This document shows, piece by piece, positions 22,960 through 42,034 of a stretch of DNA of 47,331 nucleotides. The notes under the pieces were generated by a model, which worked only from the letters and a program-made list of their open reading frames with translations, searched no databases and was not told where the DNA came from. Source of the stretch: an uncultured Clostridia bacterium (GTDB taxonomy: Bacteria > Bacillota > Clostridia > TANB77 > CAG-508); contig CANQJG010000002.1 in assembly GCA_947624185.1 (NCBI GenBank), forward strand, positions 1-47,331. Direction: 5' to 3'. A program made the translations under genes and the position numbers. Position 1 is the stretch's first letter; every line of letters starts with the position of its first letter.

Positions 22960-23670
22960 TATAAGACACTATGTAAGATATATTGGATTTATCAAGCTAG
23001 CTTCACTTGATTTATAAGGCATCTTGAGAACTTTAATAATCTAATCCTTCTGAAATATTAAAGAAACCATAACCCCAACTATTTTTATATATCCTACATA
23101 CTACCTTATAATTAAACAAATATATTATTAGAGTTTCCCCTTACAAACTATTACCTACTTAATTGTTCAACCACTGTGAGAACAAGTCTGAGCATATAGT
23201 AGCGACCCATACACTTCTTGCCCCTTTCTAGCACATACAAGATTGATTACTTGTAAATTTCACTCATCATTCAGATAATTTGTCTTTTTGTATTAATGCC
23301 TAATACATCAAAATGTTTTACTGTACTTATCTCGTTTGAGCTACTTTAACCTAGTTATGTCTTATAGGCACTTTTCAGTACCTTCACGAGAAATAGTCTT
23401 ATTTAGCATTACCTACATTGCTTCATTGTAGCTAACAATGAGATATAGGCTTATTGACTACTAGTCCGTCTATTGCGACTACGACAACTCTAGTGTTTTA
23501 TTAAGCGATAATATTTGCACATTACCCATTATTGATTTTTACATCTTCTCTACATATATTGCTATATATAGAAAGCAACCTTCCAAAAGTATCCTTATGG
23601 CTGACTACTTATCGGGTAATTCCAAGCCGTATGATCTTACGGTTTAGCACTTGGGTAATAATATATTTAA
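22960..23670 (-). ncRNA. candidate large structured RNA, part downstream of the tRNA-like element
   Basis: No credible ORF on either strand. Two hand-counted 60-nt lines give 38-42% G+C, against about 20% in a nearby coding line. Nested hairpins are present, for example CCAAG-CCGTA-tgatct-TACGG-tttagca-CTTGG (23622-23654) and ATCAAG/CTTGAT (22991-23011). Strand is inferred from context. Confidence 0.45.
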
Positions 23671-23745
23671 TGGTGGAAACATTAGGACTTGAACCTACAT
23701 CTCTTGCTTATAAGCAAGTACTCTAACCAATTGAGCTATATTTCC
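23671..23745 (-). tRNA. tRNA-like gene with aberrant anticodon arm (undetermined or pseudo)
   Basis: GGAAATA/TGTTTCC acceptor stem, D arm GCTC-AATTGGTTA-GAGT, T arm with GGTTCAAGTCC, encoded CCA. The anticodon arm is the perfect palindrome CTTGCTTATAAGCAAG, leaving at most 6 loop nt (UUAUAA). Confidence 0.65.
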
Positions 23746-24084
23746 ATATAACAGAAAATGTATACTAAACTCTTAGTCAATCGGACACTAAGCCGTCCGT
23801 TTTAGTCATACATTTCCAGGAACCTTTTCTACTTCTTGGTAGATAGGTAATTTGTGTTAGAATAAGATTTGCACTTATTATGACAATAACATACTATTAC
23901 TGGCATTACGAACTCACCTTCCCTTTATCAGAGGGCTGTTATTATCTACTCTGCGTCTACTATTAAGTAGGCTTATTATTCCATACTTTTTACCAAACTA
24001 AAGCTTTAGCTTGTCTATTCCGCCACTAACACATATATTTCACAGCTCTTTAACTATATTTACATAGTTAGTAACTGTTGAAAA
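23746..24084 (-). ncRNA. candidate structured RNA, part upstream of the tRNA-like element
   Basis: ORF-free with raised G+C. Hairpins include CGGAC-actaagcc-GTCCG (23782-23799) and CCCT-ttatcag-AGGG. Confidence 0.35.
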
Positions 24085-24255
24085 CTAATTTTCTTTTGTT
24101 TTCTTACAAAATTCTGAGCATTTGTAATTTATACAATCTGCTTCATTTTTTATATTTAATGTTATATTACATTCTTCATACCCTTTATCCACATAATGTA
24201 CACATTTTGGGCATATCTTTTCTTTATATTTATTTATTATTTCTTCTGTACTCAT
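24085..24255 (-). CDS. small Cys-rich protein (56 aa, absent from the ORF track)
   Basis: TAAAGGAGAAAAAAT precedes the ATG at 24255. Sequence MSTEEIINKYKEKICPKCVHYVDKGYEECNITLNIKNEADCINYKCSEFCKKTKEN, with six Cys including CxxC. Confidence 0.5.
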   Translation of the reverse strand: MSTEEIINKYKEKICPKCVHYVDKGYEECNITLNIKNEADCINYKCSEFCKKTKEN

Positions 24256-24665
24256 ATTTTTTCTCCTTTAGACAAAAATTAAAAGCCTATCATAAGATAG
24301 ACTTATAAATTTATTATTTATTTTTTTACAATTGTAATTAAAAAACTAATTGCAGACATCCAAAATGAAAAGTAATTATATACTTCTCTATACTTTTTCA
24401 TATGTTTTTCTAATCTTTCTAGCCAACTTTTCTTTCGTGTTACTCCTATGAATTTCCACTTCCTATATCATCACCTCCTTTTTTAATGAATTTTAGAGGT
24501 AATGACAGCTTTACTAAATAAGTATTCCTATAGATTTCTCCTTTGCAAAAAATTATATATTATTTGGGACTGTTTTTATTATAACACATTATATCATATA
24601 TTTTCGCAAAATTTGTTTTATGTATACCAAAAAGAAAAATATTTATTATTTTGTCGAATAAAATA

Positions 24666-24694
24666 TTGACTTATTTTCCATTTTTTGATACTTT
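24666..24694 (+). promoter_or_regulatory. candidate promoter of the plus-strand small membrane protein cassette
   Basis: TTGACT, a 17-nt spacer ending in TGa, then TACTTT. Confidence 0.4.
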
Positions 24695-24725
24695 ATAATT
24701 AATTATTTAATTTAGTCACTTCTTT

Positions 24726-24807
24726 ATATGTGTAGGTGTAATAATCAGCAGTATAAATGCTGATTATTGTAGCAGTTATATACTGCTGATAAACTGCACC
24801 TACATAT
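24726..24807 (+). promoter_or_regulatory. structured 5' leader (three-helix junction with an alternative 12-bp helix)
   Basis: P1 is TGTAGGTG (24731-38) with CACCTACA (24797-804). P2 is AATAATCAGCA (24740-50) with TGCTGATTATT (24758-68). P3 is AGCAGT (24771-76) with ACTGCT (24782-87). The competing helix is ATCAGCAGTATA (24744-55) with TATACTGCTGAT (24779-90). Confidence 0.5.
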
Positions 24808-24844
24808 TGCAGTTTAATTATTACATAGAGAGGAGGTGAACAAA

Positions 24845-25021
24845 TTGGAGACATCTATGTTGTTAGCAATTCGACTTCTTGGTATTGCTTTAATTATTTT
24901 AATTATTGGAATAGTTGTATGTTTGCTAGCTAGTTTAGGCTATAATACATATATACGATATAAAACCAACAATAAAAAAATTGAAGTTCACGCCAAGAAC
25001 TCCAATTCAAAAATTAAATAA
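24845..25021 (+). CDS. small hydrophobic membrane protein (58 aa), type I toxin-like or exclusion-like
   Basis: TTG at 24845 lies 8 nt after AGGAGG (24831-36). Sequence LETSMLLAIRLLGIALIILIIGIVVCLLASLGYNTYIRYKTNNKK... It runs opposite to the flanking phage genes and has its own terminator. Confidence 0.6.
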   Translation: METSMLLAIRLLGIALIILIIGIVVCLLASLGYNTYIRYKTNNKKIEVHAKNSNSKIK

Positions 25022-25027
25022 GATCTG

Positions 25028-25061
25028 TGACAAGGACTTTGTTCCTTGTCATATTTTTTTT
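25028..25061 (+). terminator. intrinsic terminator
   Basis: TGACAAGGA-ctttgt-TCCTTGTCA followed by T8. Confidence 0.75.
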
Positions 25062-25430
25062 ATTTAAATAATGGAATAGGTTAGGACTTATGTCCTGACA
25101 TTATTTATTTCTTCTGTATATTTTATACATTTAATCTTCTTGTTTGTCAAAAACAATTACATTACAATTTCATTTCATTTTCTTGTATAAAATGTAACTA
25201 GATTGCAATATTTGTATTAGTATTATATACGACTTTATTAGAAATTTCAATAATTTCTATATAAATTTTATATAATAATTATATAATAATTATGTAAATT
25301 TGTCAAATTTAATACTCATAACTAGAATTGAGCTACATAATTAGGAAGCACTATAGACAATTCTACGCGTCATCAAATAATTAGCAAACCAATATAATTT
25401 ATCTAGTATCATTATATTTAGCCTTCTAGT

Positions 25431-35572: not shown

Positions 35573-35806
35573 CTAACCAGCCCATACGGCCTTTTCATAT
35601 TCTAAATTTTCAAATTTCATTTCTTGTTTTTGTTTCTTTATTAATCTGTCATTTACTTCTTCAAACTCTGATGTATATTTAATTATTAAATCTGTAATAT
35701 CTTCTATAATATCTTCAGATATACAGTCTTGCTTAATGTCTTCTAGTTTGCTTAACATTTCTTCTAATTCACTGCATCTTTCTTCATCATCAAATAAAAT
35801 TTTCAT
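35573..35806 (-). CDS. acidic hypothetical protein
   Basis: 77-aa ORF. Confidence 0.5.
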   Translation of the reverse strand: MKILFDDEERCSELEEMLSKLEDIKQDCISEDIIEDITDLIIKYTSEFEEVNDRLIKKQKQEMKFENLEYEKAVWAG

Positions 35807-36129
35807 TTTTTCTCCTTTACAAATTTATAATTTTTTATATACTCTTCTGCTTGATTTATGTGTTCTGTTCTAAGTTCTGAAACTCTTCTTACTCTAATAT
35901 TCCATAATAAATCTCTCATTAGTTGCCTTTCATATTGTTGTCTTTTATGTTTACGTTGCCAACCTTCTTCATAAATCGTTAAATCAATTTCTTTTGCTAC
36001 TTTGTTTATTATCATTCCTCTTATATTGTTATAAGCTCCACTATTTCCTGAATTGCCTCTGTTTATAATAGCTTCTAATTCTGCTATTCTTTCTTTTAAC
36101 TTACTATTTTCTTCTAATAACTCTTCCAT
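35803..36129 (-). CDS. hypothetical coiled-coil protein
   Basis: 108-aa ORF with a TAGGAGG RBS. Confidence 0.55.
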   Translation of the reverse strand: MEELLEENSKLKERIAELEAIINRGNSGNSGAYNNIRGMIINKVAKEIDLTIYEEGWQRKHKRQQYERQLMRDLLWNIRVRRVSELRTEHINQAEEYIKNYKFVKEKK

Positions 36130-36161
36130 TTAAAAATACCTCCTATCATACCCACAACGGC

Positions 36162-36190
36162 TTGACAGAAGGTCATAAAAATCGTATAAT
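36162..36190 (+). promoter_or_regulatory. consensus sigma-A promoter (plus strand)
   Basis: TTGACA (36162-67), exactly 17 nt of spacer, then TATAAT (36185-90). Confidence 0.6.
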
Positions 36191-36196
36191 AATTGT

Positions 36197-36294
36197 ACGA
36201 CTATTAGACTTAGTCTATATAGCTCGTTGGGGCTACTAAAACTGAACAGATTACCAGTCAATGCAGTTTTAGTAGTTTCTTTTTATTTATTTTT
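36197..36294 (+). ncRNA. candidate small RNA A (about 90-100 nt)
   Basis: Runs from the promoter at 36162 to the 12-bp stem CTACTAAAACTG/CAGTTTTAGTAG (36233-36275) plus a T-rich tail. Its 3' end is antisense to the end of the AbrB-like ORF. Confidence 0.4.
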
Positions 36295-36457
36295 CAATTA
36301 TAATTTGCTTTTTTTCTTTGTCATATTTTATATTTACTTCACGTTTTTCTTGCGATAATCCCATATCTTTAATCCAAGACATAGGTAAACTTATTCTCGG
36401 AGATATTGAGCCACTACCACTTTTATTCCATAATACTTTCAATATTCTCTCCTCCAT
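36287..36457 (-). CDS. AbrB/MazE/SpoVT-type DNA-binding protein (56 aa, absent from the ORF track)
   Basis: MEERILKVLWNKSGSGSISPRISLPMSWIKDMGLSQEKREVNIKYDKEKKQIIIEK. AAGGAAGGGAG RBS upstream. Confidence 0.6.
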   Translation of the reverse strand: MEERILKVLWNKSGSGSISPRISLPMSWIKDMGLSQEKREVNIKYDKEKKQIIIEK

Positions 36458-36464
36458 ATTTATT

Positions 36465-36519
36465 CTCCCTTCCTTGACAGTACGTGATATTTAATATATA
36501 ATACTATCAAGGAAGGGAG
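36465..36519. repeat. 13-bp perfect inverted repeat CTCCCTTCCTTGA / TCAAGGAAGGGAG
   Basis: The arms are at 36465-77 and 36507-19. They bracket a promoter on the plus strand and contain the RBS of the AbrB-like ORF on the minus strand. Confidence 0.7.
36474..36502 (+). promoter_or_regulatory. consensus sigma-A promoter (plus strand)
   Basis: TTGACA (36474-79), exactly 17 nt of spacer, then TATAAT (36497-502). Confidence 0.6.
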
Positions 36520-36648
36520 TGGGGATTTTAGTATCCCCTTTCCTCTAAACCTTTAAGAATTAAATCTCGTTGTTTACGATTATTTAATTCTCTTAGGTTT
36601 TTAGCCTTGAGTGCTTGGTTTCGTTGGTGGCGGGCAAGCACTTTTTTT
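36509..36648 (+). ncRNA. candidate small RNA B (about 140 nt), fully antisense to the 44-aa ORF
   Basis: Runs from the promoter at 36474 to the stem AGTGCTTG/CAAGCACT (36610-42) plus T6. Internal hairpins are GGGGAT/ATCCCC and AGAATTAAAT/ATTTAATTCT. Confidence 0.4.
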
Positions 36649-36662
36649 ATGAATTTTTTCAT
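36528..36662 (-). CDS. small basic protein (44 aa, absent from the ORF track)
   Basis: GAAAGGAGGG lies 7 nt before the ATG at 36662. Sequence MKKFIKKVLARHQRNQALKAKNLRELNNRKQRDLILKGLEERGY. Confidence 0.45.
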   Translation of the reverse strand: MKKFIKKVLARHQRNQALKAKNLRELNNRKQRDLILKGLEERGY

Positions 36663-36686
36663 AGGCTATCCCTCCTTTCGAGTATT

Positions 36687-36715
36687 ATATTATCATAACG
36701 TTACGTCATTGTCAA
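36687..36715 (-). promoter_or_regulatory. promoter for the 44-aa / AbrB-like operon
   Basis: Minus strand reads TTGACA, a 17-nt spacer, then TAATAT with an upstream TGa. Confidence 0.55.
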
Positions 36716-36749
36716 TACTTTTTTCAAACTTTTTTAATATATTTTTTTG

Positions 36750-36780
36750 CAATAGAAAAAACCTTGCTTTTTCAAGGTTT
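36750..36780 (-). terminator. intrinsic terminator after the Panacea-type pair
   Basis: Minus strand reads AACCTTG-aaaaag-CAAGGTT followed by TTTTTTC. Confidence 0.65.
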
Positions 36781-36792
36781 ATCAGGTATTTA

Positions 36793-37197
36793 TTAACTCC
36801 CATGGTCGTACGCACTATAATCCCAATCATATCCTATTATGTATAATATAGAATTACATTCTTTAGAACGTACACCCAATAATCTATTATTTTGATTATT
36901 AAATCTAAAAACTATAATTTTACTATCGTCTGATAATTGTAATTCTCTCTTTATGCTTTCAAGACTTATCTTAAATTCACTGATTGGTATCATTTCATAA
37001 CCTGTTTCATGTGGTCTATTTTGTAGTTCTTCCCATGTTAGTTTTGATATTTCTTCTAGCTTTTTAAATAACTTATCAATTATTTTATTGCATTTTTCTT
37101 TAGCTTTTACAACTTTTTCTATTGTATAATCTTTATTACTTATAGAATATTTAAAAGATAGTATTATATGATTGTTGTTTGCTATACATTCCTTCAT
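36793..37197 (-). CDS. candidate toxin partner of the Panacea-domain protein (family unassigned)
   Basis: 134 aa. Its start overlaps the upstream stop (TAATG). The C-terminus IIVFRFNNQNNRLLGV...ILYIIGYDWDYSAYDH is faintly RelE/ParE-like. Confidence 0.45.
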   Translation of the reverse strand: MKECIANNNHIILSFKYSISNKDYTIEKVVKAKEKCNKIIDKLFKKLEEISKLTWEELQNRPHETGYEMIPISEFKISLESIKRELQLSDDSKIIVFRFNNQNNRLLGVRSKECNSILYIIGYDWDYSAYDHGS

Positions 37198-37652
37198 TAT
37201 GCAACCTTTGTTTTAAAGTAATTCTTAATTTTGTCCTTTGCTATTATTTCATTTCTTGGAGTAGTTCTCCATGGTTCTTCTTCATGTGTCATGTTTCTTA
37301 ATTTCCATGCCGAATATTGGCTATATTCATTATATACTTCTTCTAATATTCTTTCTGTTTCATTATTTATTTCTGCTTTAAAGTCTTTGTCATATTTGAT
37401 ACCATTTGCTCCATTTTCTTTATATTTATTATATATTTTTCTTATTACTGGTCCATGTTCCCATGCTACAAAATCATCATTAAATAATGGTATATCCTTT
37501 TTGGCTAAAAAATATCCTTGTGCATAATATAATAATTTCTGCAATTTTAAGTTTGTAATATATTCTGCATCTTCAAAATTCATTTGTGTTCTGTTCTTAT
37601 TTAAAAACCACTCTGCTATATCTTCTACTCGATAATACTTTTTAGTAATCAT
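37197..37652 (-). CDS. Panacea (DUF4065, SocA/GepA-like) antitoxin-domain protein
   Basis: ITNLKLQKLLYYAQGYFLAKKDIPLFNDDFVAWEHGPVIRKIYNKYK matches the DUF4065 core. Confidence 0.75.
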   Translation of the reverse strand: MITKKYYRVEDIAEWFLNKNRTQMNFEDAEYITNLKLQKLLYYAQGYFLAKKDIPLFNDDFVAWEHGPVIRKIYNKYKENGANGIKYDKDFKAEINNETERILEEVYNEYSQYSAWKLRNMTHEEEPWRTTPRNEIIAKDKIKNYFKTKVA

Positions 37653-37892: not shown

Positions 37893-38038
37893 AGAGTTTC
37901 ATTTCTTAATGTATTTAATTCTAATTTGCCTATACCTTTATTGAAAATGAGTTGTTTTAAAAAGTCTTCATATCTAAATAGCTCTGTCAATTCATCTTCT
38001 CTAAATTCTTTTCCTTGTATATCTATAAATCTTGGCAT
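37859..38038 (-). CDS. 59-aa hypothetical protein (absent from the ORF track)
   Basis: ATG at 38038 follows AGGAG. Sequence MPRFIDIQGKEFREDELTELFRYEDFLKQLIFNKGIGKLELNTLRNETLKKIYVVPTEN. Confidence 0.4.
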   Translation of the reverse strand: MPRFIDIQGKEFREDELTELFRYEDFLKQLIFNKGIGKLELNTLRNETLKKIYVVPTEN

Positions 38039-38228
38039 TTTTCTTCATCTCCTTTCTTTCTAAATAATTTATTCTTAATAGGATTATTAATAATATTGGT
38101 GCTAATATGTATAAGATTGTCATTATTGCATCCATAGTAATTAATTGGCTTATTGCTTTAGCTATAATACTTGCAATAATAGGTAACCATATTATTGATG
38201 TTCCTAATAAAAATCTAATAAATTTCAT
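38001..38228 (-). CDS. small membrane protein
   Basis: 75 aa with two hydrophobic spans. Confidence 0.5.
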   Translation of the reverse strand: MKFIRFLLGTSIIWLPIIASIIAKAISQLITMDAIMTILYILAPILLIILLRINYLERKEMKKNAKIYRYTRKRI

Positions 38229-39076: not shown

Positions 39077-39313
39077 TTATGTTTCAATGTGTTCTTTATT
39101 TGTCGTACTCTTTGTTCGTTGTATTGCCAAAAAAATTTGAACAATAGGTACATTAAATATTTTGGCAAATGTTTCTTTGGCTTTATCACTTGGATTCCTT
39201 TCTCCCCTTTCTAGCATTGAAATGTAATCTTTAGAATATCCTGATAATTCAGCTAGTTTTTCTTGTGTCATATTTTTATCTAATCGCATTTCTTTAAATG
39301 ACATTTCTTTCAT
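39077..39313 (-). CDS. Cro-like XRE-family HTH regulator
   Basis: MTQEKLAELSGYSKDYISMLERGERNPS. It is divergent from the repressor gene. Confidence 0.7.
   Translation of the reverse strand: MKEMSFKEMRLDKNMTQEKLAELSGYSKDYISMLERGERNPSDKAKETFAKIFNVPIVQIFLAIQRTKSTTNKEHIET
39105..39118. promoter_or_regulatory. fifth copy of the operator-like motif, inside the cro-like ORF
   Basis: GTACTCTTTGTTCG. Confidence 0.35.
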
Positions 39314-39329
39314 TATTTCACCGCCTTTC

Positions 39330-39492
39330 GTACTATTTGTTCGTTATGATAAATAGATTATATAGTACAATATGTTCTTTGTCAACACTTTTTAAAAAAA
39401 AATTTTAGTAAAACCCTGAAAGTCTTGCAGCTCTAGCAAAGAAATTTGTACATTTTGTTCTTTTTCTCTTTACAAATCGTACAATTTGTTAT
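39330..39492. promoter_or_regulatory. four operator-like repeats, consensus GTAC(A/T)NTTTGTT(C/A)
   Basis: Copies at 39330-43 (GTACTATTTGTTCG), 39365-78 (GTACAATATGTTCT), 39448-61 (GTACATTTTGTTCT) and 39479-92 (GTACAATTTGTTAT). Two of them sit in promoter spacers. Confidence 0.6.
39357..39385 (-). promoter_or_regulatory. early lytic promoter (PR-like)
   Basis: Minus strand reads TTGACA, exactly 17 nt of spacer, then TATAAT. The spacer contains operator copy 2. Confidence 0.7.
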
Positions 39493-39497
39493 ATAAT
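39469..39497 (+). promoter_or_regulatory. repressor promoter (PRM-like)
   Basis: TTTACA, a 17-nt spacer, then TATAAT. The spacer contains operator copy 4. Confidence 0.6.
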
Positions 39498-39525
39498 CAA
39501 TTTATCTTAACTGAAAGGATAAAAT

Positions 39526-39864
39526 ATGAATAGATTAAAAGAACTAAGATTAGAAAAAGGATTACTACAATCTGATATAGCTAAAATAATAGATAAAAGT
39601 GATAGAATCGTTGGTTTTTATGAAACTGGTGAAAGAGATATGAGTACAGATACACTATCCAAGCTTGCTGATTTTTTTAATGTATCTATAGACTATCTTT
39701 TAGGAAAATCAGATATAAGAAATTCAATAGATGTAAACAATGTCTCTTTTGCTAATCATAATGGTATAGATACTGCTGGATTAAATAAAGAAGAAATTGA
39801 TGAGATAAAGAAACAGGTTGAATATATGCGTTGGAAAAAAGAACAAGACAAAAAAAATAATTAA
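39526..39864 (+). CDS. CI/ImmR-like XRE-family repressor
   Basis: RLKELRLEKGLLQSDIAKIIDKSDRIVGFYETGERDMSTDTLSKLADFFNVSIDYLLGKSD. Confidence 0.75.
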   Translation: MNRLKELRLEKGLLQSDIAKIIDKSDRIVGFYETGERDMSTDTLSKLADFFNVSIDYLLGKSDIRNSIDVNNVSFANHNGIDTAGLNKEEIDEIKKQVEYMRWKKEQDKKNN

Positions 39865-40659: not shown

Positions 40660-40792
40660 AAAATAGATAATGTATAAAGTTTGGCGACCACATACATTAT
40701 CTACACTCGTTACTACTTGTTTTAGTAGTTTATTATATTATACTATAATAAATCTCCTAAAACAAGTCCGAAACATTTGTTTAGGAGGTATT

Positions 40793-41995
40793 ATGGAAAG
40801 AAAACAAGGAAATAAATCTAGAGGAAATGGAGAAGGAACTATTTATTATAGTAATACCCTTCAAAAATGGGTTGCTCAATATATTGAGCCATCAGGAAGC
40901 AGGAAAACTTTGACTCAAAAGAAAAACGAAAAGGTTACTGATTTTAAAAAGAGATTTACAAAGGCTATTAATGAAATAAATCAAAATACATACATTTCTG
41001 ATTCAAATATATCTTTATACACAATTATTTCAGAATATGTTGAAAATAAGCATAATACTGGAATAACATCAGACAGAACATATATAAGAGATAAAGAAAC
41101 TTTAAAATTATTAAATAAAATTTGTATTGATTTTATTAATAAACCTATTCAAAAAGTTAGTCTTTTAGAAATAAAAAGATGTTTGCCTAATTTTACCAAA
41201 ATAGAAATTAAACATAAAAATGGAACTAAAACAAGATTTTATTCTCAAAATGTTATTGATAAAACTTTTAGATTTTTAAAACTAGGTTTTAAAATTGCTT
41301 CTTCTGAAAGAATTATAGCTTTTAATTTAATGGATAATCAATCAATAAAAAAACCAAAAGCTAAACAAGAGACAAAAGCAGTAGAAGCTCTAACTATTGA
41401 CGAAGAAAAAGAACTAATTAAAATATTAAATAGTATAAAACATAAATATAAAGATATTATTTTACTTGACTTGTTTACTGGAATGAGAATAGGAGAATTA
41501 CTTGCCTTAACAAAAAATGATATTAATTTAACAAATAATACTATAACTATTAACAAGACTTTAACTAGAGATAAAAATGATAAAGTTATTTTAGGTTCTA
41601 CTACTAAAACTCTCGCAGGTCAAAGAGAAATTATAATGTCCATGAAAGCAAAACAATTATTAAAAAAAATTATTAATAGAAAAATAAATAATATTTATAA
41701 TCTTATATTTTTTGACTATGAAAATAATACTTTTATCACACCAAATGAAATTAATTTATTTTTAAAGAGATTAAATGATAAAAATCATTTTTGTAAAAGT
41801 ATTCATACTCATATGTTAAGACATACATACGCAACAAGATGTATAGAGGCAGGTATGTCTCCTAAAGTTTTACAAAAAAATTTAGGGCATAAAAAAATTC
41901 AAACCACACTAGATACTTATACAAGTGTTTTTGAAAAATTTAATAAAGATGAAAATGAAAAATATGATATCTATATGAAAAATTTAGGAATGTAA
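40793..41995 (+). CDS. int: tyrosine integrase
   Basis: ATG at 40793 follows AGGAGG. The C-terminus is HTHMLRHTYATRCIEAGMSPKVLQKNLGHKKIQTTLDTYTSV. It lies adjacent to att and the tRNA. Confidence 0.9.
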   Translation: MERKQGNKSRGNGEGTIYYSNTLQKWVAQYIEPSGSRKTLTQKKNEKVTDFKKRFTKAINEINQNTYISDSNISLYTIISEYVENKHNTGITSDRTYIRDKETLKLLNKICIDFINKPIQKVSLLEIKRCLPNFTKIEIKHKNGTKTRFYSQNVIDKTFRFLKLGFKIASSERIIAFNLMDNQSIKKPKAKQETKAVEALTIDEEKELIKILNSIKHKYKDIILLDLFTGMRIGELLALTKNDINLTNNTITINKTLTRDKNDKVILGSTTKTLAGQREIIMSMKAKQLLKKIINRKINNIYNLIFFDYENNTFITPNEINLFLKRLNDKNHFCKSIHTHMLRHTYATRCIEAGMSPKVLQKNLGHKKIQTTLDTYTSVFEKFNKDENEKYDIYMKNLGM

Positions 41996-41999
41996 GTCC

Positions 42000-42020
42000 T
42001 ATTGCATTAATATTGCATTA
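42000..42020 (+). repeat. two TATTGCATTA repeats (candidate arm-type sites)
   Basis: Copies at 42000-42009 and 42011-42020, the same 10-mer as at 2522-2543. Confidence 0.45.
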
Positions 42021-42034
42021 ATTCAAAATTAAAA

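Follow-up and report, generated by a model that had tools for sequence, protein, structure and literature searches.

In this study, we analysed a 47,331-nt stretch of contig CANQJG010000002.1 (positions 1 to 47,331; assembly GCA_947624185.1) from an uncultured Clostridia bacterium, hereafter called the window, which is a prophage of an AT-rich Firmicute. We focused on its region 36130-36790, where two plus-strand promoters, each followed by a terminator, face a series of minus-strand genes. Judged by its conservation in related phages, this region is a probable regulatory cassette that heads the delayed-early (recombination/replication) unit. The minus-strand unit opens at the predicted promoter P(-) (36687..36715), identified by scanning and by its conservation. 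It reads TTGACA-17-TAATAT with an upstream TG, and its spacer contains an operator-like ACGTAACGT (36695-36709). From P(-), the gene order is a 44-aa basic open reading frame (ORF; 36528..36662), a 56-aa ORF (36287..36457), a 108-aa ORF of unknown function (35803..36129, from the ORF list and PHROG), an Erf-like annealing protein and a NinB/Orf-like protein. The 108-aa gene, also on the minus strand, is the first past the target of one of the two RNAs (RNA A, below). Upstream of P(-), a minus-strand intrinsic terminator found by scanning (36759..36780) closes the preceding unit, a Panacea-type toxin-antitoxin pair; similar hairpins are found in the related loci L001, L068 and L070.

The initial annotation had described candidate antisense small RNAs directed against the early operon. 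The antisense orientation was borne out, but the target is not simply the early operon. Because the terminator at 36780-36759 ends the upstream unit and a new promoter follows at 36715, the RNAs oppose the head of a delayed-early recombination/replication unit.

On the plus strand, a consensus scan combined with reading of positions 35700-37300 confirmed the two proposed TTGACA-N17-TATAAT promoters, both perfect (12/12), promoter A at 36162..36190 and promoter B at 36474..36502, each with an intergenic -10 box; the scan also recovered the third, minus-strand promoter that had been proposed at 36687-715. The whole window holds four perfect sites on its two strands, compared with a mean of 0.06 expected from dinucleotide shuffles (n=100, at most 1 perfect site per shuffle). 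The remaining two, both on the minus strand, are located at 39385-39357, where the site is the early promoter before the cro-like gene, and at 25306-25278. Promoter A is followed by a terminator hairpin (36229..36279) and then TTTTTATTTATTTTT to ~36296, supported by folding, alignment and covariation. Promoter B is followed by a stem (36610-17/36635-42) with seven T at 36642-48 (36610..36648 in all), supported by folding and covariation. Both terminators were missed by the consensus scan, since their loops are longer than its 8-nt limit. When the opposite strand was read, no T-run was found after either hairpin, in agreement with the earlier claim that these terminators work on the plus strand only.

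The predicted products are RNA A (~36195..36294, ~95-100 nt, with a start near 36197 and a 3' end in the T-tract 36280-36296) and RNA B (~36508..36648, ~140 nt). The predicted fold of RNA A has an energy of -30.5 kcal/mol (z -5.3) and that of RNA B -48.7 kcal/mol (z -5.2), and 0/200 shuffles were as stable in either case. The z scores of coding tiles of the same phage were ~-0.25, compared with ~-5 for the two RNA regions. As had been proposed, RNA B is antisense to the 44-aa ORF with its strong ribosome-binding site (AAAGGAGGG); the complementarity to this ORF (36662..36528) begins around codon 5 and extends 19 nt beyond the stop codon. RNA A ends antisense to the 56-aa, AbrB-like ORF (36457..36287), also in line with the initial annotation, and its T-tract covers the stop codon and, at the most, a few codons before it. 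As for coding potential in the RNAs, a 9-codon GUG frame in RNA B is not conserved across the aligned loci.

To compare this region with its relatives, we retrieved loci via the 56-aa protein from genomes, IMG/VR and metagenomes and through exact-protein look-ups, and found further loci by searching for a 22-base pattern that is specific to the stem-loop of RNA A. A first alignment, which covered all 700 bp of the region and included six loci at ~70% identity, revealed that both plus-strand promoters are kept, that the terminator stems carry compensatory changes, that the T-tracts lie on the plus strand and that P(-) is very strongly conserved. Across loci, P(-) is the most conserved DNA of the region. 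Promoter A scored at least 10/12 in 21/22 loci, compared with 2.5% of random 67-nt windows of the same sequence. Promoter B was perfect in 17/28 loci and scored at least 10/12 in 26/28; in the two low-scoring loci (L005 is an example) the scanner chose the wrong hexamers. These near-consensus promoters are retained amid unrelated-looking flanks, and the plus-strand T-tracts after both hairpins are kept in all loci, even where the encoded residues differ. Since ~30 other uncultured Clostridia phages have this arrangement too, we conclude from this conservation that the predicted promoter and terminator signals mark real conserved RNA genes and are not chance occurrences.

RNA A was found in 31 distinct loci, 30 of which also contain RNA B. 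The order of the two RNAs is constant, their spacing is ~310-330 nt and they are always antisense. The covariance model R1 was trained on 20 distinct aligned RNA A sequences and scored RNA A of the window at 80.6 bits (E 1e-11); the model R2 was trained on 19 delimited, aligned RNA B sequences and scored RNA B at 119.6 bits (E 4e-23). In loci outside the training sets, model R1 detected RNA A in L082-L088, which had been retrieved through the small protein (E 1e-11 to 1e-12), and in nine more loci from Clostridia metagenome-assembled genomes (E 1e-10 to 1e-16). In each case the match lies immediately past the AbrB-like gene, in antisense orientation. Model R2 detected RNA B in the untrained loci L082, L086 and L087 (E 1e-19 to 1e-25) and in 9/9 loci that had been retrieved solely via the RNA A pattern, on the same strand as RNA A.

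The stems of both RNAs are preserved by compensatory changes. In RNA A, 96.0% of 430 cells are paired (31 sequences), double-sided changes occur in 10/14 pairs, and 47 compensatory cells were counted, compared with 10.3 +/- 2.6 after shuffling (0/500 shuffles reach 47). In RNA B, 94.9% of cells are paired (30 sequences), with double-sided changes in 9/10 pairs and 56 compensatory cells against 14.2 +/- 3.0 shuffled; its terminator carries compensatory changes in 5/6 modelled stem pairs. When the partner columns were slid, pairing fell to 27-49% for RNA A and to 27-61% for both RNAs together. The lower stem of RNA A covaries, with at least 6 sequence versions across loci. It carries an apical mini-hairpin, which reads GAUU-ACC-AGUC in the window (36249-36259) and GUUU-ACC-AGAC or GUUU-CUC-AGGC across loci, two of its pairs being invariant. 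This apical loop sequence is conserved in 31/31 loci, although the stem beneath it varies freely. The 5' hairpins of RNA A and of RNA B are likewise conserved or covarying.

The folding of RNA A also indicates its strand. Its hairpin is more stable on the plus strand in 20/20 loci (-19.4 vs -14.0 kcal/mol), because 1-6 G-U pairs are used there, and the composition-corrected z score is -4.5 on the plus strand compared with -3.0 for the complement, with the plus strand better in 19/20 loci. Strand-specific folding together with covariation indicates that the structure of RNA A on the antisense strand is under selection. RNA B is assigned to the plus strand because of its promoter and T-tract only. 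This T-tract persists where the encoded residues differ (IKN in L003, IIKR in L033). Taken together, the conserved promoters, the compensatory stems and the detection in untrained loci support, at the sequence level, the initial proposal of two antisense small RNAs at an early regulatory node.

The genes opposite the two RNAs are conserved as well. The small ORF is open in 19/19 loci, where it encodes 38-47 aa, is preceded by an AAGGAGG-type ribosome-binding site and has conserved N- and C-terminal motifs. A profile search revealed a family of at least 211 proteins of ~41 aa, none of them annotated, and gene callers sometimes skip this ORF. The 19 protein sequences contain no hydrophobic segment, are ~40% charged and are rich in K, R, Q and E. 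No match to the small protein was found in Pfam or PHROGs.

The 56-aa protein, with 28 homologues, belongs to phrog_2329 (function unknown; E 1e-22) and is probably SpoVT/AbrB-like. Its match to the Pfam family MazE_antitoxin (E 0.005, 17.1 bits) is below the 24.7-bit cutoff, and one homologue carries PF04014. The AlphaFold2 model of this protein has a mean predicted confidence (pLDDT) of 92.6 and a strand-strand-helix-strand-strand order. Its best matches in the PDB, none of which is significant, are SpoVT (probability 0.75, E 0.6), Sso7c4 (TM 0.60) and VapB (TM 0.54), all of which are SpoVT/AbrB folds. An AbrB-like nature of the 56-aa protein is therefore plausible on this model, and both ORFs, judged by their conservation, are real genes.

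Between these two genes we identified a feature that the initial annotation had missed. In the minus-strand mRNA, the ribosome-binding site of the 56-aa ORF (36465-77) is predicted to pair with a complementary arm (36509-21; the anti-Shine-Dalgarno arm), forming a hairpin (36465..36521) supported by the inverted repeat, covariation and folding. The same stretch, as DNA, is a palindrome that encloses promoter B. The anti-Shine-Dalgarno arm begins 6 nt past the stop codon of the small ORF, so that the downstream ribosome-binding site is predicted to be sequestered in a hairpin right after the stop of a short ORF. The arms covary: TTTACA is paired with TATAAAGG in L019, and both arms are wholly different in L003. 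The hairpin was present in the minimum-energy fold of the sense mRNA in 19/19 loci tested. The probability of being unpaired was 0.23 for the ribosome-binding site of the 56-aa gene, compared with 0.53 for 12 other genes of the window used as controls. Because its ribosome-binding site is locked in this hairpin, translation of the AbrB-like gene should, on the predicted fold, depend on ribosomes finishing the small ORF or on RNA cleavage.

Furthermore, we compared the spacers of the two convergent promoters. The P(-) spacer contains a short palindrome or repeat that differs by locus (ACGTAACGT, CCGTACGG or GTCGTGTCG), and the promoter B spacer tends to share the motif of the P(-) spacer of the same locus (28 loci). 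The longest common substring of the two spacers averaged 5.89 for cognate pairs and 4.78 for non-cognate pairs, and 0/5000 permutations reached the observed value. This pattern suggests that one regulator may read both P(-) and promoter B through a shared, co-evolving operator. When the P(-) operator was sought elsewhere in the window, including the cI-cro region, it was not found. The promoter B region of L087, moreover, is similar to the cI/cro operator.

Building on the conserved signals, the RNA structures, the strand of RNA A, the genes and the hairpin, we infer RNA synthesis, pairing with the mRNA, cleavage or a translational block, and a physiological role, as follows. P(-) would drive the 44-aa basic protein, then the 56-aa AbrB-like protein and then the downstream genes. 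Promoters A and B would each yield a short terminated RNA fully complementary to the opposing mRNA; each predicted RNA has its own promoter and its own intrinsic terminator opposite conserved genes, as is expected of cis-antisense RNAs. RNA B would pair with the small ORF, from about codon 5 through the stop, and with the anti-Shine-Dalgarno arm just beyond. The AbrB-like ribosome-binding site would be locked in the hairpin of 20-27 bp, and since AbrB-like translation would depend on completion of the small ORF or on RNA cleavage, RNA B would set the output of both the small protein and the AbrB-like protein, via translational coupling or processing. RNA A would pair with the spacer that separates the AbrB-like gene from the gene after it, probably starting at the conserved apical loop, and would lead to cleavage, decay or uncoupling of the downstream message, like lambda OOP on cII mRNA. 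Convergent transcription would add interference. Together, the two RNAs may keep leaky expression of the operon off, as in a lysogen, up to the point where more mRNA is made than they can match, or they may set the timing after induction. We give a rough probability of 0.6 to this cis-antisense control at the head of the delayed-early unit, exerted by RNA B on the small ORF and the AbrB-like gene and by RNA A on the downstream message.

Several observations weigh against such control. Both RNAs are known here from sequence alone, and the 47 and 56 compensatory cells were counted in model-fitted alignments of related sequences. For RNA B, folding does not pick a strand, since the region is equally structured on the plus strand (z -5.1) and on its complement (z -5.2); the stems of RNA B may be as useful to the mRNA as to an antisense RNA, and its T-tract coincides with Lys-Lys codons. 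For RNA A, the weak point is that no clear route leads to an effect on the downstream genes. It leaves the ribosome-binding site of the next gene uncovered, its start being located 55 nt upstream of that site. No conserved minus-strand attenuator was found opposite RNA A or before the next gene in the homologous loci; a 5-bp stem followed by U5 (UCGUA..UACGA UUUUU) in the sense leader is present in the window only and absent from those loci. In addition, the apical loop is conserved although purely cis-antisense pairing would not demand it, which is a hint that a protein or a trans partner may be involved.

We therefore weighed this cis-antisense control against other explanations. The convergent promoters may act as obstacles at the DNA level, through collision, promoter occlusion or a polymerase held at promoter A, where it would cover the beginning of the next gene, with the RNAs as by-products that do not pair. 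Such transcriptional interference or insulation fits the geometry, in that promoter B and P(-) point at each other with ~170 bp between their start sites, promoter A is located 22 nt from the ribosome-binding site of the next gene, and both antisense units terminate just before the next upstream element, as insulators would. It needs no RNA structure beyond a terminator, yet the apical and 5' hairpins of RNA A and the 5' hairpin of RNA B are conserved or covarying; as a full account we consider it unlikely, though it deserves some weight, and it is compatible with antisense pairing rather than exclusive of it. Cis pairing on its own does not account for the conserved loop of RNA A (31/31 loci, with the stem below free to vary). 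RNA A might instead act in trans: its apical hairpin GUUU-ACC/CUC-AGRC would bind some protein or distant RNA, with a host factor, a superinfecting relative and the AbrB-like protein as conceivable targets, and RNA A would serve in immunity or as a decoy, like P1 c4 or P4 CI. No conserved complementary site was found, and pairing between RNA A and RNA B was no better in cognate (-30.7 kcal/mol) than in non-cognate pairs (-31.3 kcal/mol). The loop type of RNA A tracks no other variable element inspected; by eye, the ACC or CUC type did not correlate with either the P(-) operator or the loop of RNA B. Kissing complexes of cis-antisense RNAs, too, typically have conserved loops, and overall a trans-acting role for RNA A is rather doubtful.

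An ORF of less than 50 aa that is fully overlapped by a predicted strongly expressed antisense RNA, within a prophage, also recalls a type I toxin-antitoxin system, in which the small basic protein would be the toxin and RNA B the antisense antitoxin that stabilises the prophage; the Panacea-type pair nearby shows that the region collects such modules. The small protein is not the hydrophobic or membrane-active peptide expected of such toxins, as it lacks a hydrophobic stretch, is ~40% charged and has no Pfam or PHROGs match. The small ORF does not stand alone either: it has no terminator of its own, always heads the replication/recombination operon and is predicted to be coupled to the AbrB-like gene, and L070-72 drop it together with RNA B while keeping the rest. 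Thus a toxin-antitoxin function appears improbable to us. If the structures belonged only to the sense mRNA, as processing or stability elements or as a translational lock, the plus-strand signals would be incidental. The symmetric z scores of the RNA B region and the wobble pairs of the locking hairpin, which mostly fit the minus strand (L005, L045, L075/76, L078 and L080; the opposite in L066), would agree with this. Against it stand the near-consensus boxes with correct spacing in 21/22 (promoter A) and 26/28 (promoter B) loci, the plus-strand T-tracts kept in all loci despite differing residues, and the better plus-strand folding of RNA A in 19-20 of 20 loci, which leave a purely sense role very improbable. 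The least probable explanation, with hardly any weight in our view, is that the RNAs activate or prime a nearby replication origin. The cassette adjoins replication genes, and in L070 RNA A is located 330 bp upstream of a DnaB_2-type initiator gene, but several genes separate the cassette from the initiator in most loci, both RNAs end at efficient-looking terminators, and no iterons were seen.

The cis-antisense control described above may also have a more elaborate form. The palindrome would have a double role, read rightwards as the consensus promoter B and leftwards as the mRNA lock. RNA B begins with 13 nt that match the sequence around the AbrB-like ribosome-binding site and are complementary to the anti-Shine-Dalgarno arm of the lock, so that it could release the lock, which would switch on the AbrB-like protein, and at the same time repress the small protein. 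With RNA A and the shared operator added, this would make a self-contained reciprocal switch that sets when a temperate phage commits to replication, independent of cI/cro. We regard this extension as speculative and unlikely.

Among known systems, CopA-tap-repA of plasmid R1 is the closest mechanistic analogue of RNA B, by analogy of arrangement, because a hairpin around promoter B sequesters a ribosome-binding site. In plasmid R1, the CopA antisense RNA reportedly targets tap, and the repA ribosome-binding site is said to lie in a hairpin, with its translation coupled to that of tap. In R1 and, as predicted, in the cassette, a strongly expressed stem-loop antisense RNA (acting on CopT in R1) faces a short upstream ORF, the downstream ribosome-binding site is buried in a hairpin, a small DNA-binding protein belongs to the circuit (CopB in R1) and replication functions are gated. 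The systems differ in that the controlled protein here is AbrB-like and not an initiator, the coupling here is predicted, the small ORF belongs to a conserved 41-aa family and is not a dispensable leader, and the antisense promoter is located inside the loop of the locking hairpin. Moreover, the cassette belongs to a Firmicute phage rather than an enterobacterial plasmid, and no sequence similarity was found between them.

The phage RNAs with which the initial annotation had compared the candidates, oop, sar and c4, fit to different degrees: oop and sar are good analogues in topology, and c4 is a poor match. Lambda OOP, like RNA A as predicted, is a short terminated RNA from a constitutive promoter between a small regulator gene and the replication genes, directed against the early operon and ending over the 3' end of the regulator. 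OOP overlaps ~50 nt of cII and acts on cII mRNA in an RNase III-dependent manner. RNA A, by contrast, overlaps only the stop codon region, and it has no similarity to OOP in sequence or structure and no Rfam match. P22 sar (arc-ant) resembles RNA A in that the antisense promoter is located in the spacer after the gene for a ~55-aa regulator and fires back towards it. The sar RNA covers the ant ribosome-binding site, whereas RNA A starts 55 nt upstream of that of the next gene and leaves it uncovered. The c4 RNAs of P1/P7 and the P4 CI RNA are also phage small RNAs that control early or antirepressor functions. Those RNAs arise by processing of a sense transcript and target sites farther upstream in their own operon, whereas each RNA here has its own promoter and terminator, which is a different biogenesis; no Rfam match, including C4, was credible at E up to 10. 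RNAIII/CopR of pIP501 (Inc18) and RNAI of pT181 are Gram-positive examples in which a ~100-140-nt antisense RNA with terminator hairpins and a small repressor act on the leader of a replication operon. These countertranscripts induce a terminator in the nascent leader. Here, no conserved minus-strand terminator was found between the RNA A target and the next gene, so the cassette does not resemble an attenuation system in this respect.

The cassette is always located upstream of ERF, DnaB_2, Phage_rep_org_N or DnaB genes. In a variant represented by L070, L071 and L072, the small ORF and RNA B are absent, P(-) is located directly before the AbrB-like gene and RNA A is kept; here a DnaB_2-type initiator gene follows after a 330-bp AT-rich gap. 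In the related prophages L086-L088, a Tad2-like (anti-defence) gene (~1300-1800) is located between the cro-like gene and the cassette. Two candidate features of the window were rejected. A minus-strand promoter-like site at 36324-36297 (11/12), considered as a start of the downstream operon, had background scores in 22 loci. A 13-nt pairing of 92% complementarity between RNA A and RNA B in the window (36229-36241/36526-36538) was not conserved, and cognate pairs were no better than non-cognate or shuffled ones.

We also examined the surroundings of the cassette in the prophage. Upstream, a SocA/Panacea antitoxin gene on the minus strand (37652..37200; Pfam E 9e-26) overlaps a 134-aa ORF (phrog_8366, of unknown function), the pair spanning 36793-37652. 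It is likely a PanA-PanT toxin-antitoxin pair, ended by the terminator at 36780-36759, and L068 has the same Panacea-type neighbour. According to the prophage annotation, the cI-like gene is located at 39526-39864 on the plus strand and the cro-like gene, followed by the early genes, at 39313..39077 on the minus strand. The switch region between them (39300-39530) contains divergent promoters, at 39385-39357 (minus, 12/12) and 39469-39497 (plus, 11/12), and three copies of a GTACAWWWTGTT-like motif, which are probably the cI/cro operators. The plus strand further carries a weak ImmA-like gene. Within 40670-42160, a 441-aa plus-strand ORF is followed by a tRNA-Arg(CCT) gene (42082-42160, minus); these are probably the integrase and the attachment end of the prophage. 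Among the recombination genes, a minus-strand ORF (32976-33530) encodes NUMOD4, HNH_3 and NUMOD1 domains of the homing-endonuclease type. A 75-aa membrane-like ORF (38001-38228, minus) matches the SMODS-associated 4TM effector domain at E 0.006, below the cutoff. Farther away, a ROOL RNA (23110-23678, minus, 328 bits) abuts a tRNA-like gene (23671-23745, minus) with an odd two-base anticodon call. The stretch 23000-25400, which has no ORF above 76 aa, is headed by the perfect promoter at 25306-25278 (minus).

To determine whether the RNAs belong to known families, we scanned the window against 4227 Rfam families, including C4 and the known type I antitoxin RNAs. At the gathering thresholds, the whole window contained only ROOL and two tRNAs, and a cmscan of 35900-37000 at E up to 10 returned only sub-threshold chance matches (to miRNA and snoRNA models, and to SraG with 22 bits where the cutoff is 50 bits). 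Searches of a phage database by megablast and blastn found no named phage with the cassette. What phiCDKH01 and Clostridioides phage ES-S-0173-01 have in common with the window is limited to the region of the AbrB-like gene, which is placed in a different context, and neither R1 nor R2 gave a match in these phages. All loci retrieved came from metagenomes or metagenome-assembled genomes, with no cultured host among them, and the literature searched did not yield a description of this cassette. Their conserved structures and arrangement mark RNA A and RNA B as two new RNA families within one conserved cassette, which appears as a new variation on the phage and plasmid countertranscript theme.

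To our knowledge, nearly all examples of antisense control in the development of temperate phages come from a small set of enterobacterial models (lambda oop, P22 sar, P1 c4 and P4 CI). Our analysis adds two well-delimited new RNA families and a conserved 41-aa protein family with at least 211 members, all labelled 'hypothetical', and these RNAs and the small protein form one cassette before the replication/recombination genes of many gut Clostridia prophages. For annotation, the gain is a small ORF that is sometimes missed and RNAs that are in no database, and the covariance models R1 and R2 provide a direct handle for finding more members. If the proposed control is true, these phages would have a second decision layer beneath the cI/cro switch, one that follows a plasmid-like copy-control logic.

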